In this document: one piece after another, positions 1 to 58,685 of the stretch
Layout: every line of letters starts with the position of its first letter
Position numbering within the stretch: position 1 is the stretch's first letter
NCBI GenBank assembly: GCA_964016885.1
Contig: OZ024749.1
Location: forward strand, 34,782,001-34,846,000
Length of the DNA stretch: 64,000 nucleotides
Reading direction: 5' to 3'
Source: Eledone cirrhosa
Lineage: Eukaryota
Notes under the pieces: generated by a model
What the model saw: the letters and a program-made list of their open reading frames with translations, nothing else
What the model was told of the DNA's origin: nothing
Databases searched by the model: none
Made by a program: the position numbers and the translations under genes

Positions 1-592
1 ATGTTTTTACTGTACAGTAAACATCTTTTATATTCAAGTGTTGGTGTATCTCAAGCAAATTTTTTTTTTTTTTTTAAGTATAAAATTCATAACTTTATTC
101 ACAGAAAAATTTATTTAAAGAAATGAAGAATAGAAGAAAAAGAAGAGAAATTAAATCAAAGAAATTAAACAACGAAAGGAAATGAAGAGGGGGGGAAGTG
201 TCAGATTCTACACCCCAGTCTGAATGGTATTGCTCAGCTGCATCCTACAGACAAAATAACAAAGGCATTACCATGGAGAATGCCCTGTGACGCCCTCTGC
301 AAAAGCTACTCCACTTTACAGGCGTCCTTCCTCGGTGGGTGGCCATTTTTCCGATTTTTTCCAGTTGTGATGGGAGGCCAGCCATATCAAGGCTCCTTTG
401 GATTAGGTAATTCAGAGCTGTGTATCAGGGAAAGTGGCCTGTGTTAAGGTGGCAGGATTGTTGGTGCAGACTGAACTCGTCAACAACATCTCCATAATGG
501 CATCTGTGTGGCTCACACATTCAGAGTCGGTGACGCTATACCACTCCAATGTGAGTGCACTTGTCATCAAGTAGGGCACCATGGATTTTATC

Positions 593-3320: not shown

Positions 3321-3697
3321 ATGCAAAGGTTTTATTTAAAATTGTTGGGTTACAACAAGTAAATATTTTATAACTGATATAAAGCACTCGACAAGTTTTT
3401 GGAGTAGATATATGATATTAAACAAATGGAAACTATATTTATAAAACCATATTTATTTCATTATACATATTTCAGGGATACTATATTAAAAATATGGCAT
3501 GCCTATTATACTATCCAGACAGCTTCCTAATATAATGGTCGCTTATAATATGGTACGTCAAAATTATTTATAAAACTGTTTATATATTGTATTTTATCTG
3601 ACGAAGGCATGCCATATTTTTAATATGGTATCCCTGAAATATGTATAATGAAATAAATATGCTTTTATAAATATAGTTTCCATTTGTTTAATATCAT
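3321..3697 (+). mobile_element. Short hammerhead-carrying element family B (PLE pLTR/retrozyme-like) with an internal inverted partial copy at 3411-3504
   Basis: Flanked by (TA)n. Homologous in inverted orientation to 4449-4706. Segment 3411-3504 is the reverse complement of 3605-3697. Confidence 0.7.
3590..3655 (+). ncRNA. Type I minimal hammerhead ribozyme
   Basis: Stem I TATTTTAT/ATGAAATA; CTGACGA 3598-3604; stem II AGG-C-ATGCCATATT/AATATGGTAT-C-CCT; GAAA 3636-3639; self-complementary stem III ATATGTAT; AUA cleavage triplet with H17 at 3647. Confidence 0.8.
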
Positions 3698-4265: not shown

Positions 4266-4266
<1 letters not shown>

Positions 4267-4413
4267 ACCAGGGCGTGTAATGCGAAGTTACTGTAGGTTC
4301 ACCCAGGTGATGTTTAGGTTCACATCAGTGTCGAGGTGTAGAGCTAGACAGAGTGTAATATGATAATACAAGGACGATTGGTTAAGTAATGAAGACTGAA
4401 CCAATCATCCTTG

Positions 4414-4420
<7 letters not shown>
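4266..4420 (+). mobile_element. Deleted derivative of element family D with a terminal hairpin
   Basis: Matches the reverse complement of both ends of 9283-9537 but lacks the ribozyme. Local inverted repeat ATAATACAAGGACGATTGGTT / AACCAATCATCCTTGTATTAT. Confidence 0.65.
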
Positions 4421-8645: not shown

Positions 8646-9070
8646 AAAAGAATAGAGGTGTAACACACAAGTTATTATATATTGGTAAACGGAATAGAAA
8701 ATGCTGACAAATTGTTCACAGTTGAAAAATGGTTTAATTAGGAATAAAAGAGTATTAGTGATTGTATGGGTTAGTATTCAGTTGTGGTTTTAAGTTTTTA
8801 AGTTTTTACCGGTTGCGCATTTCTAAATGCTTTTCAAAAATAATTTTGAGATAGAGTGTCCGTGCTGTTTGCTCAGATCAGAGCAAACAGCACGGACACT
8901 CTATCTCAAAATTATTTTTGAAAAGCATTTAGAAATGCGCAACCGGTAAAAACTTAAAAACTTAAAACCACAACTGAATACTAACCCATACAATCACTAA
9001 TACTCTTTTATTCCTAATTAAACCATTTTTCAACTGTGAACAATTTGTCAGCATTTTCTATTCCGTTTAC
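8646..9070. repeat. Long palindrome (foldback element family A, copy 2)
   Basis: 8685-8874 is the reverse complement of 8881-9070 (spacer AGATCA). Essentially identical to the 2881-3294 sequence; here the left arm is the longer one. Confidence 0.9.
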
Positions 9071-9114: not shown

Positions 9115-9268
9115 AATGATGCTTCGTCCTTGAAGACGCACCCTAATTTTGACAACCAAAAATTTGAAAAAAAATAATAAACAACCTTCGGCCTCCAGGA
9201 CCCATGGTAGAGTTTTGAGACTTATTTTAGGAAAAAAGTAATGTCTTCGACGCCGGGAGATACGGTAT
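9115..9268. mobile_element. pogo/Tc2-like MITE end fragment
   Basis: Ends GTCTTCGACGCCGGGAGATACGG-TA with an internal AAGACGCACC repeat. A similar terminus TACCGTAT...GACGCAC lies at 27996. Confidence 0.5.
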
Positions 9269-9282
9269 ATTTATATATATAT

Positions 9283-9537
9283 AGTTAAATAAGATAACAA
9301 GGATGATTGGTTACTCCTTCATTACGTTTATTGGTTGGTGACGCACGTTTCACCACTGACCAGTTCAAGGTTCGATCTGTATCGATCTGACCTGACTCTG
9401 AAATCCGCGGCTCGTCAGACCCCTCGTAATGTTAATGGAAGAATGAATACATGCTGTATGATGAAGTCAGAAGTGAACCTAAACATCAAGTGCTCACTCG
9501 GGTGAGCCTACAGTAACTCCAAGTTACACTCCCTGGA
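9283..9537 (-). mobile_element. Short hammerhead-carrying element family D in (TA)n
   Basis: Bounded by (TA)n on both sides, homologous to 4266-4420, contains a complete hammerhead. Confidence 0.7.
9320..9431 (-). ncRNA. Type I hammerhead ribozyme with long stem II and extended stem I
   Basis: Minus strand: CATTACG-AGG-GGT-CTGACGA-GCCGC...(about 50 nt imperfect hairpin)...GTGGT-GAAAC-GTGC-GTC-ACC-AACC-AATAAA-CGTAATG. Canonical core; GUC site with C17 at 9340. Confidence 0.85.
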
Positions 9538-9959
9538 TATATATATATATATATTGGTTTATGAAGCTAGTTGAAGAGAATCGGTACAGCTCTGGCTGTC
9601 ACTTATTCAATCATAATATAACGTTTGTACATGAGAAATATAAGCCTATAACCCAGAATGCACACATACATTAATCAATAAGATAAACGATTACTTGTGG
9701 GTAATAATATTTGTATATCATATAAACCCGGACTGTTAAGCAGTTTGTCTACTCCAATCTGTAAACAATAGTTCCAGCTGGAACTACTATTCACAGTTGT
9801 TAGGTAATATCTGCAGACATAACATAACTTGGTGTTGGAAAGCACTTTCTCAGCAAGTATCACCTTCCACGAATGGAAAAGTTTGTTTAAACAACTCATA
9901 CAAGTCCAGTCACTGCCATTGTAAGTGTAGCAGTTTCAAACTTGTAGTGACATGTGACC

Positions 9960-11599: not shown

Positions 11600-13840
11600 A
11601 GTGCATTTCTACCAGAGTGTTTGTCTATATGAACAGTTGAGGTGTTGGCTGACCTGTCTAACTCTTCACATTTCTGTGTATGTATATCTTTGTGAATGGT
11701 TTTGATGTTCACTAACCAGTCTAATTCTTTACATTTCTATGTCTGTCTCTACGAATAGTTATAATGTTGGCCAGTCAAACTCTTCACATTTCTGTGTGTC
11801 AATATGAATAGTTGAGATGTTCACTGACCAGTCAAACTCTTCACATTTCTGTGTGTCAATATGAATAGTTGAGATGTTCACTGACCAGTCAAACTCTTCA
11901 CATTTCTGTGTGTCAATATGAATAGTTGAGATGTTCACTGACCAGTCAAACTCTTCCCATTTCTGTGTGTCAATATGAATAGTTGAGATGTTCACTGACC
12001 AGTCAAACTCTTTACATTTCTGTTTGACAATATGAATAGTTGAGATGTTCGCTGACCAGTCAAACTCTTCACATTTCTGTTTGTCAATATGAATAGTTGA
12101 GATGTTCACTGACCAGTCAAACTCTTCACATTTCTGTGTGTCAATATGAATAGTTGAGATGTTCACTGACCAGTCAAATTCTTCACATTTATGTGTGTCA
12201 ATATGAATAGTTGAGATGTTCATTGATCAGTCAAACTCTTCACATTTCTGTGTGTCAATATGAATAGTTGAGATGTTCACTGACCAGTCAAACTCTTCAC
12301 ATATCTGTTTGTCAATATGAATAGTTGAGATGTTCACTGACCAGTCAAACTCTTCACATTTCTGTTTGTCAATATGAATAGTTGAGATGTTCACTGACCA
12401 GTCAAACTCTTCACATTTCTGTGTGTCAATATGAATAGTTGAGATATTCACTGACCAGTTAAACTCTTCACATTTCTGTGTGTCAATATGAATAGTTGAG
12501 ATGTTCACTGACCAGTCAAACTCTTCACATTTCTGTGTGTCAATATGAATAGTTGAGATGTTCACTGACCAGTCAAATTCTTCACATTTATGTGTGTCAA
12601 TATGAATAGTTGAGATGTTCATTGATCAGTCAAACTCTTCACATTTCTGTGTGTCAATATGAATAGTTGAGATGTTCACTGACCAGTCAAACTCTTCACA
12701 TATCTGTTTGTCAATATGAATAGTTGAGATGTTCACTGACCAGTCAAACTCTTCACATTTCTGTTTGTCAATATGAATAGTTGAGATGTTCACTGACCAG
12801 TCAAACTCTTCACATTTCTGTGTGTCAATATGAATAGTTGAGATATTCACTGACCAGTTAAACTCTTCACATTTCTGTGTGTCAATATGAATAGTTGAGA
12901 TGTTCACTGACCAGTTAAACTCTTCACATTTCTGTGTCAATATGAATAGTTGAGATGTTCACTGACCAGTCAAACTCTTCACATTTCTGTGTGTCAATAT
13001 GAATAGTTGAGATGTTCACTGACCAGTCAAATTCTTCACATTTCTGTGTGTCAATATGAATAGTTGAGATGTTCATTGATCAGTCAAACTCTTCACATTT
13101 CTGTGTGTCAATATGAATAGTTGAGATGTTCACTGACCAGTCAAACTCTTCACATATCTGTGTGTCAATATGAATAGTTGAGATGTTCACTGACCAGTCA
13201 AACTCTTCACATTTCTGTTTGTCAATATGAATAGTTGAGATGTTCACTGACCAGTCAAACTCTTCACATATCTGTTTGTCAATATGAATAGTTGAGATGT
13301 TCACTGACCAGTCAAACTCTTCACATTTCTGTTTGTCAATATGAATAGTTGAGATGTTCACTGACCAGTCAAACTCTTCACATTTCTGTGTCAATATGAA
13401 TAGTTGAGATGTTCACTGACCAGTCAAACTCTTCACATTTCTGTGTGTCAATATGAATAGTTGAGATGTTCACTGACCAGTCAAACACTTTACATTTCTG
13501 TTTGTCAATATGAATAGTTGAGATGTTCACTGACCAGTCAAACTCTTCACATTTCTGTTTGTCAATATGAATAGTTGAGATGTTCACTGACCAGTCAAAC
13601 TCTTCACATTTCTGTGTGTCAATATGAATAGTTGAGATGTTCATTGATCAGTCAAACTCTTCACATTTCTGTGTGTCAATATGAATAGTTGAGATGTTCA
13701 CTGACCAGTCAAACTCTTCACCTTTCTGTGTGTATGTCTATTTGAATGGCTGTGATGTTCACTAACCAGTCTAATTCTTCACATTTCTATGTCTGTCAGT
13801 TTATTTGAATGTGTGTGATGTTTGCTGATCAAGACTGACC
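11600..13840. repeat. 57-bp minisatellite, roughly 35-39 copies, with diverged edge units
   Basis: Unit CACTGACCAGTCAAACTCTTCACATTTCTGTGTGTCAATATGAATAGTTGAGATGTT. The minus frame reads a 19-aa repeat broken by TGA stops and two 2-bp deletions. Confidence 0.95.
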
Positions 13841-31409: not shown

Positions 31410-32340
31410 TCACATCTTGTGGGCACAGATATCACATCTTGTCGACACAGATATCACATCTTGTCGGCACAGATATCACATCTTGTCGGCACAGATATCA
31501 CATCTTGTCGGCACAAATTTCACACCTCGTCGGCACAAATTTCACACCTCATCGGCACAAATTTCACACCTCGTCGGCACAGATATCACATCTTGTCGGC
31601 ACAGATATCACATCTTGTCGACACAGATATCACATCTTGTTGGCACAGATATCACATCTTGTCGGCACAGATATCACATCTTGTTGGCACAAATTTCACA
31701 TCTTGTCGGCACAAATTTCACACCTTGTCGGCACAAATTTCACACCTCGTCGGCACAGATATCACACCTCGTCGGCACAGATATCACACCTCGTCGGCAC
31801 AAATATCACACCTCGTCGGCACAGATATCACACCTCGTCGGCACAGATATCACACCTCGTCGGCACAAATATCACACCTCGTCGGCACAGATATCACACC
31901 TCGTCGGCACAAATATCACACCTCGTCGGCACAAATATCACACCTCGTCGGCACAGATATCACACCTCGTCGGCACAGATATCACACCTCGTCGGCACAG
32001 ATATCACACCTCGTCGGCACAGATATCACACCTCGTCGGCACAGATATCACACCTCGTCGGCACAGATATCACACCTCGTCGGCACAGATATCACACCTC
32101 GTCGGCACAGATATCACACCTCGTCGGCACATATATCACACCTCTTTGGCACAGATATCACACCTTGTCGGCACATATATCACACCTCGTCGGCACAGAT
32201 ATCACACCTTGTCGGCACAGATATCACACCTCGTCGGCACAGATATCACACCTTGTCGGCACAGATTTCACACATTGTGGGTACAGGTGTCGAACCTTGT
32301 GGGTACAGGTCTCGAACCTTGTGGGTACAGGTCTCACATT
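31410..32340. repeat. 22-bp minisatellite, about 40 copies
   Basis: Unit CACACCTCGTCGGCACAGATAT. The stop-free unit explains the three overlapping ~330-aa ORFs. Confidence 0.95.
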
Positions 32341-57764: not shown

Positions 57765-58685
57765 ATTATTATTTAGATTATTATATACAGTAAATTATTA
57801 TTTAGATTATTATATACAGTAAATTATTATTTAGATTATTATATACAGTAAATTATTATTTAGATTATTATATACAGTAAATTATTATTTAGATTATTAT
57901 ATACAGTATATTATTATTTAGATTATTATATACAGTAAATTATTATTTAGATTATTATATACAGTAAATTATTATTTAGATTATTATATACAGTAAATTA
58001 TTATTTAGATTATTATATACAGTAAATTATTATTTAGATTATTATATACAGTAAATTATTATTTAGATTATTATATACAGTAAATTATTATTTAGATTAT
58101 TATATACAGTAAATTATTATTTAGATTATTATATACAGTAAATTATTATTTAGATTATTATATACAGTAAATTATTATTTAGATTATTATATACAGTAAA
58201 TTATTATTTAGATTATTATATACAGTAAATTATTATTTAGATTATTATATACAGTAAATTATTATTTAGATTATTATATACAGTAAATTATTATTTAGAT
58301 TATTATATACAGTAAATTATTATTTAGATTATTATATACAGTAAATTATTATTTAGATTATTATATACAGTAAATTATTATTTAGATTATTATATACAGT
58401 AAATTATTATTTAGATTATTATATACAGTAAATTATTATTTAGATTATTATATACAGTAAATTATTATTTAGATTATTATATACAGTAAATTATTATTTA
58501 GATTATTATATACAGTAAATTATTATTTAGATTATTATATACAGTAAATTATTATTTAGATTATTATATACAGTAAATTATTATTTAGATTATTATATAC
58601 AGTAAATTATTATTTAGATTATTATATACAGTAAATTATTATTTAGATTATTATATACAGTAAATTATTATTTAGATTATTATTA
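57765..58685. repeat. 29-bp near-perfect minisatellite, about 31 copies
   Basis: Unit ATTATTATTTAGATTATTATATACAGTAA; only one variant unit seen (near 57909). Confidence 0.95.

Follow-up and report, generated by a model that had tools for sequence, protein, structure and literature searches.

The 255-bp element at 9283..9537 of the window (the whole 64,000-nucleotide stretch of Eledone cirrhosa DNA analysed here) is very probably an end-fragment, 5'-truncated and with an internal inversion, of an autonomous Hydra-clade Penelope-like element (PLE) lying in (TA)n, its hammerhead being the element's own pLTR motif and likely inert in this copy. The features read from the sequence of the element, its flanks and a shorter relative in the same window are as follows:

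4266..4420, minus strand: shorter copy of the sister subfamily C, with a sense arm (sequence 3' of the hammerhead, tail, site B) and an inverted arm of about 35 nt
9265..9282: imperfect left (TA)n target flank, in whose repeat a target-site duplication, if present, would be hidden
9283..9474, minus strand: pLTR arm of a Hydra-clade PLE of subfamily A, inverted relative to the tail arm
9320..9339, minus strand: 3' strand of stem I and 3' strand of the distal helix
9339-9337 with 9421-9419, minus strand: stem I, ACC pairing with GGU
9340 and 9339, minus strand: predicted cut between these two positions, C17 being 9340
9340..9351, minus strand: GAAA (9351-9348), palindromic stem III ACGUGCGU (9348-9341) and GUC
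9352..9411, minus strand: 60-nt stem II domain, closed by GCCGC (9411-9407) and GUGGU (9356-9352), an interrupted hairpin of about 21 bp
9412..9421, minus strand: 5' strand of stem I (GGU) and canonical core C3-A9, CUGACGA (core 9418-9412)
9431-9425 with 9326-9320, minus strand: distal stem I helix, CAUUACG pairing with CGUAAUG
9441..9446, minus strand: initiator-like TCATTC, whose A (9444) is 22 nt upstream of stem I
9470..9474: 5-nt microhomology common to both arms, at the inversion junction
9470..9537, plus strand: tail arm, the last 68 nt of a tail of about 105 nt, ending at the fixed 'site B'
9538..9554: right (TA)n target flank

A probable inverted end-fragment

A search of the host genome (3.0 Gb) returned 3186 candidates, of which 40, with 84-96% identity, were scored. 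In most of these the sole uninterrupted match is that of the hammerhead arm (9283-9474), and the remaining 68 nt match downstream on the opposite strand. The element is naturally arranged as 3' UTR, hammerhead and site A, followed by a tail of about 105 nt and then by site B and (TA)n. The pLTR arm of the window copy begins 52 nt upstream of stem I, takes in the hammerhead and finishes at the fixed end 'site A'; it matches the 3' end of the element at 92-96% in the best genomic copies and is contiguous with the 3' UTR and a GIY-YIG ORF in longer ones. The tail is the 5' UTR of the element and continues into the ORF in full-length copies. Between the two arms of the window copy about 35 nt of tail are missing.

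Among short inverted look-alikes the junction is distinct in all six that were aligned (the window copy and five others), and the tree places short copies among long ones. Short tandem arrays are absent from the 307 loci that were sampled from the family; the same-strand pairs there number four, spaced 4809, 4894, 4963 and 8650 bp. The 255 bp consist of two oppositely oriented end pieces, in a family with varied junctions, a mixed tree and no short tandem arrays, and a self-standing retroelement, as had been proposed in the first-pass annotation, which described a non-autonomous, ribozyme-processed one, is not supported. Two hallmarks of a retrozyme are likewise missing: among the 307 loci no same-strand pair is closer than 4809 bp, as head-to-tail repeats would be, and the differing junctions and mixed tree do not describe a self-propagating unit with fixed ends.

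The copy at 4266-4420 is a true relative, as the first pass had recognised; it belongs to subfamily C and has 86-90% identity to its best relatives. It had been described there as a sibling that lost its ribozyme. Neither arm reaches the hammerhead, since both stop 3' of it, and longer subfamily-C copies carry the motif; it is therefore a shorter truncation product in which the ribozyme was never included.

The hammerhead motif and its predicted folding

A type I hammerhead lies on the minus strand of 9320-9431, and all of its described features, namely CUGACGA, GAAA, GUC, stems I and II and the unusually long stem II of about 60 nt (9411-9352), were read in the sequence. CUGANGA, GAAA and NUH follow each other in type I order, both in the sequence and by descriptor. 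With a strict hammerhead descriptor the window gave 2 motifs and each of 60 block-wise dinucleotide-type shuffles gave 0, so the hammerhead is not a chance occurrence. The Rfam models, by which the first pass had proposed to verify it, do not match the window copy at the gathering score or at E<=10, likely because of the 60-nt stem II.

Two details of the earlier description hold for the window copy and not for its family. The perfect 7-bp distal helix is present here, but its seventh pair (G9425) is private and the family has 6 bp; the quasi-palindromic stem III is present too, but its imperfection (T9345) is private, the family palindrome being a perfect ACGCGCGU in place of ACGUGCGU. A third mutation of the window copy, T9352, gives the G-U pair by which stem II is closed. 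Among subfamily-A copies G9425 and T9345 are each found in 0/18, and T9352 in 2/18. The distal helix is retained in subfamilies B and C, in other registers. The more general view of a type I hammerhead of the PLE kind, with a palindromic stem III suited to dimers, is supported.

In the fold prediction suggested in the first pass, the monomer hammerhead of the window copy lies about 11 kcal/mol above the minimum free energy (MFE) and is not the predicted fold. For all nine sequences examined the monomer hammerhead is 6-13 kcal/mol above the MFE, in a model of RNA secondary structure. Folded as a whole, the 255 nt are no more stable than shuffles (z -0.87); the 117-nt motif folds better than shuffles (z -2.96), into a structure other than a hammerhead. 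By a rough dimer estimate the hammerhead differs from the misfold by -3 to +1 kcal/mol in 6 of the 9 sequences, whereas for the window copy the dimer is less favourable than the misfold by about 10 kcal/mol. The stem III self-duplex is predicted at -8.8 kcal/mol for the window copy and -13.3 kcal/mol for the family palindrome. The lone window copy is probably inert, its private mutations being predicted to weaken the dimer.

The parent element

Longer copies extend 5' into a GIY-YIG-type ORF that ends about 0.8-1.0 kb upstream, and many copies of this ORF were found by protein search. In one of the 18 long loci that were fetched, an open frame of 861 codons (L048:4014-6596) lies directly behind a hammerhead arm and tail. 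This frame is intact, with YRDD and IVY..YIG motifs read by eye, and constitutes a single ORF with a reverse transcriptase (RT) and, at its C terminus, a GIY-YIG-type endonuclease. The first pass had suggested a genome-wide search for copies and for linkage to such an ORF; copies were found, and the linkage is borne out by the longer ones and by the 861-codon frame. Several of the 18 loci contain pLTR-ORF-pLTR units with a spacing of 4809-4963 bp, which makes each unit about 4.8-5.0 kb long. These full units, like the intact ORF, are of the subfamily B type; the longest open stretch seen in subfamily A has 344 codons.

A Pfam scan of the ORF matched 0 families. Motifs present in the ORF are DKT, the linker CxCX5C, and CxxC and CxH, which flank a conserved E and N; CCHH is absent. 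At the place of RWK, L048 reads LWR and most aligned homologs read RW(K/R). The passages on the Hydra clade in Craig et al. 2021 (PMC8557442) give as its diagnostics DKT, CxCX5C, absence of CCHH, and CxxC/CxH, together with (TA)n insertion and hammerheads. Because the ORF motifs match these diagnostics, the parent is assigned to the Hydra clade; pLTRs with a hammerhead, inverted copies and an optional tail agree with the same assignment. The best named homolog of the ORF is from Argonauta hians. An assignment to Neptune was dropped once the Hydra diagnostics had been found to fit.

ORFs of other PLE families occur beside or inside copies (L033 on the minus strand, L031, L035, L037 and L048:7883-9901), one of them with a long Asn-rich insert. 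These likely result from nesting of PLEs in shared (TA)n targets.

Proposed reverse transcription start sites and inversion

In 60 core-anchored copies the arms end at site A or at site B and are followed by TATATA in 48/60, in agreement with the (TA)n targeting proposed in the first pass. Inverted copies use the two sites reciprocally: of 23 that could be scored, 21 have one arm ending at A and the other at B (coin-flip P=3e-5). These come from 27 inverted-arm rows, four of which were set aside (one duplicate insertion and three with disrupted or unrelated arms that could not be scored).

We suggest that the RT/GIY-YIG protein would nick both strands of the (TA)n target, that reverse transcription would begin within the RNA at a pair of fixed sites separated by 105 nt, each serving one strand, and that the two short cDNAs would be joined head to head at the 5-nt microhomology. 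Use of one site per target strand and joining by microhomology are modelled on L1 twin priming. Many inverted copies have overlapping arms, so simple twin priming would need strand displacement or two RNAs. The template of the window copy would have been uncut at the hammerhead. In the parent, the motif would occupy the extreme 5' end of the transcript, and cutting would take place only in a dimer formed through the palindromic stem III, perhaps aided by protein.

The reciprocal A and B ends fit the two internal starts of a Poseidon PLE, which is described in the relevant sections of PMC11167929 as nicking and extending both target strands, with reverse transcription starting at two internal sites that bound the tail. 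In the same in vitro system uncut RNA is the main template and RNA with a dead hammerhead inserts equally well (PMC11167929). Known PLE anatomy, according to PMC3846280, also includes inverted pLTRs of which one bears a tail.

5' ends and a candidate promoter

The 5' ends of 94 subfamily-A and 51 subfamily-B arms were mapped, anchored downstream of the cut site and taken from among the first-listed of 528 (A) and 757 (B) exact matches. At the cut site (+80..86) 7 A arms end where 3.5 are expected (P=0.06), and 1/51 B arms. A pile-up there was considered as genomic proof of cleavage and was rejected as not significant, and an origin by ribozyme processing, as envisaged in the first pass, is not borne out by the 5' ends. 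By contrast, among the A arms that cross the motif 41/50 end within 30 nt upstream of stem I, compared with 10/42 in B (P=2e-8). The rate of 5' ends in this region of A is 5.6% per nt against a background of about 0.6%, a ten-fold hazard, and only 7/94 A arms pass -60. A minor cluster 52-56 nt upstream of stem I, which is partly an effect of query selection, includes L003, L009, L017, L024, L025, L028, L219 and the window copy.

The upstream edge of the main cluster is marked by the initiator-like TCATTY, the A of which lies 28-30 nt from G5 in 99 copies that match this spacing pattern. Judging from the sequences, the TCATTC region may be a transcription start region and a candidate promoter, and the cluster may reflect RT running off the 5' end of uncut transcripts. 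The consensus of the downstream promoter element, DPE, is GWYV. Core G5-G8 lies 28-32 nt after the initiator-like motif, which is the DPE position, and A6U preserves GWYV; as a hypothesis, the core might double as a DPE. The initiator-to-core spacing was absent by eye in other hammerhead families examined in the same genome, and the idea is thus limited to the family of the window element. An internal Inr/DPE promoter is described for Penelope of D. virilis (in part of PMC2377424).

Core series and subfamilies

Exact genome matches number 393 for a 16-mer with the canonical CUGACGA (0 for the reversed control), 82 for a CCGACGA 15-mer (1 for its control) and 914 for a CCGUCGA 16-mer. On the tree, which is unrooted and has the order C-A-I-B, the copies form a ladder that leads from A by way of CCGACGA copies to B; subfamily C, mostly CCGACGA, branches off A. 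Median terminal branches of long and short copies are 0.009 and 0.022 in B, and 0.022 and 0.033 in A, an age ranking that is based on 120-nt alignments of partly similarity-selected copies. Subfamily B therefore combines the shortest terminal branches and the most exact matches with the core CCGUCGA (U4C + A6U). A6U is confined to B and is clearly derived; the direction between U4 and C4 is as unrooted as the tree.

Stems I-III, GAAA, GUC and the perfect palindrome are kept in all four subfamilies. Pairing holds in 94.6% of cells over a 26-pair structure in 38 copies, compared with 21-42% in slid controls. The covariation that the first pass had suggested looking for is present in part: C-G to U-A double changes occur at 2 pairs, in essentially the single lineage C and thus as few independent events, and 0 pairs vary on both sides within A/I/B. 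RNAalifold does not recover the hammerhead. Cutting is probably dispensable for spreading, since B, with the shortest branches and most matches, has U4C + A6U and has nevertheless retained stems II and III.

Alternative explanations

The persistence of stems I-III, GAAA, GUC and palindrome in every subfamily would also be expected if the hammerhead were essential, with the dimer cutting tandem transcripts, the RNA being circularised and CCGUCGA serving as a working natural core variant. This possibility, which concerns the mechanism of the parent and is compatible with a fragment origin of the window copy, is doubtful but should be taken seriously. For family sequences the dimer is about isoenergetic with the misfold or better, U4C is reported as tolerated in a viroid in vivo (in the part of PMC3088659 on such variants), and 7 A arms end at the cut site where 3.5 are expected. 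However, this excess is not significant and amounts to 1/51 in B, a natural A6C variant is described in the same part of PMC3088659 as slow and of low activity, and cleavage is dispensable for a PLE in vitro according to sections of PMC11167929.

A different reading of the 5' ends is that pLTR-only short copies carry an internal promoter, are themselves a source of transcripts and are mobilised in trans, subfamily A being largely a non-autonomous, SINE- or retrozyme-like derivative, which comes close to the first-pass idea. It would account for the stops of 41/50 A arms just upstream of the hammerhead (10/42 in B, P=2e-8), for the initiator-like motif at the edge of the cluster and for the shortness of most A arms (7/94 pass -60), as a trans-amplified pLTR-only template also gives short arms; PLE-derived non-autonomous retrozymes are proposed in part of a preprint (bioRxiv 10.64898/2026.07.22.740005). 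We nevertheless consider it improbable, since all junctions are different, short and long copies are mixed on the tree, the 307 loci hold no tandem arrays, and most short copies are without the initiator-like motif and could not re-use it. The window copy itself begins 52 nt upstream of stem I, outside the cluster, which means that its template contained 3' UTR sequence. Far less credible still is maintenance of the window copy as a functional host ribozyme. Its 13/13 core positions are canonical and its distal helix has gained a pair, but it departs from the commonest letter of its subfamily at 6/146 positions, palindrome included, in line with neutral decay; CpG-type changes fall in stem II and the palindrome; its dimer compares badly with the misfold (by about 10 kcal/mol); and a second copy is absent from the window. 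An inverted end-fragment of a Hydra-clade PLE remains the preferred explanation.

Comparison with known systems

The closest published relatives are the Hydra-clade PLEs of Craig et al. 2021 (PMC8557442), among them Hydra-1_Obim from Octopus bimaculoides, which in the passages on this clade have the same GIY-YIG without CCHH, DKT, CxCX5C and CxxC/CxH, and share (TA)n insertion, a pLTR hammerhead, inverted truncated copies and a one-ended tail. They differ in size, with units mostly under 3 kb against 4.8-5.0 kb here and a tail of 30-40 bp against about 105 bp. In the hammerhead rows of File S2 of PMC8557442, 26/26 have a loop 2 of at most 10 nt and CUGANGA, whereas the present family has a 60-nt stem II and U4C and U4C+A6U lineages.

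The PLE hammerheads described in the corresponding part of Cervera and De la Pena 2014 (PMC4209133) are of the same type I with a palindromic helix III and a predicted need to dimerise. They are likewise mostly dispersed singles from truncated PLEs, with opposite-strand pairs 100-700 bp apart. In contrast to that minimal motif, the motif here has a full 8-nt palindrome, a helix II of about 21 bp and a distal stem I helix. Poseidon PAc of Anolis, as presented in sections of Frangieh et al. 2024 (PMC11167929), shares two internal RT starts bounding the tail, an AT-rich target and uncut RNA as the dominant template; it belongs to a different clade, and here the evidence is genomic, with the sites used reciprocally on the arms of inverted copies. 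Metazoan non-LTR retrozymes, from the portion of Cervera and de la Pena 2020 that deals with them (PMC7229834), have the same type I hammerhead, are non-coding, fall in the size range of 170-400 nt and are low in GC, but they are head-to-tail tandem repeats with circular expression, whereas the window element is a solo inverted fragment. Tandem units likewise define retrozymes in bioRxiv 10.64898/2026.07.22.740005.

Our literature searches found no published description of the long stem II, of a 105-bp tail with reciprocal ends in inverted copies, of 5' ends massed at an initiator-like motif and not at the cut site, or of the core series CUGACGA/CCGACGA/CCGUCGA. They also found none of a hammerhead with the double variant U4C+A6U; the small PLE hammerhead variants of Lunse et al. 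may already include core or stem variants of these kinds.

Other motifs in the window and in the fetched loci

Four more hammerhead-like motifs of other families, at 3598 (plus strand), 4545, 42436 and 56798 (minus strand), occur in the window, with a palindromic stem III and a stem II of 31-60 nt. Those at 3598, 4545 and 42436 lie near microsatellites, and 4545 abuts the (TA)n that flanks 4266-4420. The descriptor gave 18 rows from other families in the fetched loci and 3 further rows of the window element's family; 9 of the 18 have a stem II of 48-60 nt and palindromes of 8-10 nt. Examples with a 48-53-nt stem II and an 8-10-nt palindrome are L004:2141-2233, L148, L107:1162, L068:2317, L055:94 and L123:694, L004 and L148 being inverted pairs. 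Such long-stem variants escape Rfam, and hammerhead counts in genomes of this kind are therefore likely underestimated.

At 8700-9055 the window contains a near-perfect palindrome without spacer that adjoins (TA)n, with arms of at least 178 nt that are 99% complementary; the left arm may extend further. It is possibly another fold-back insertion. Long homogeneous tandem arrays are found at 11618-13792 (57-bp units), 31410-32273 (22-bp units) and 57765-58683 (29-bp units).

Significance

A hammerhead in a (TA)n-targeting PLE is already published for the Hydra clade, an octopus family included, and the window copy is an ordinary one. What appears to be new here is the long stem II, the 105-bp tail with reciprocal ends and the natural core series. 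The genome holds apparent footprints of two fixed RT start sites. As a tentative and somewhat speculative proposal, the hammerhead may be in the course of being retired in vivo, with CCGUCGA replacing CUGACGA/CCGACGA in the lineage that has spread most recently, and with no loss of the long stem II or the dimerising palindrome; the motif might now be an RNA scaffold or dimerisation site and a promoter element, and cephalopod-type genomes might hold thousands of long-stem hammerheads, in several families, that are invisible to Rfam. The function of hammerheads in endonuclease-bearing PLEs is called unclear in a passage of Craig et al. 2021 (PMC8557442). Matched natural core alleles (canonical, U4C and U4C+A6U) in spreading lineages of one genome, together with an intact ORF, offer a natural test of whether Penelope-like elements need their ribozyme.
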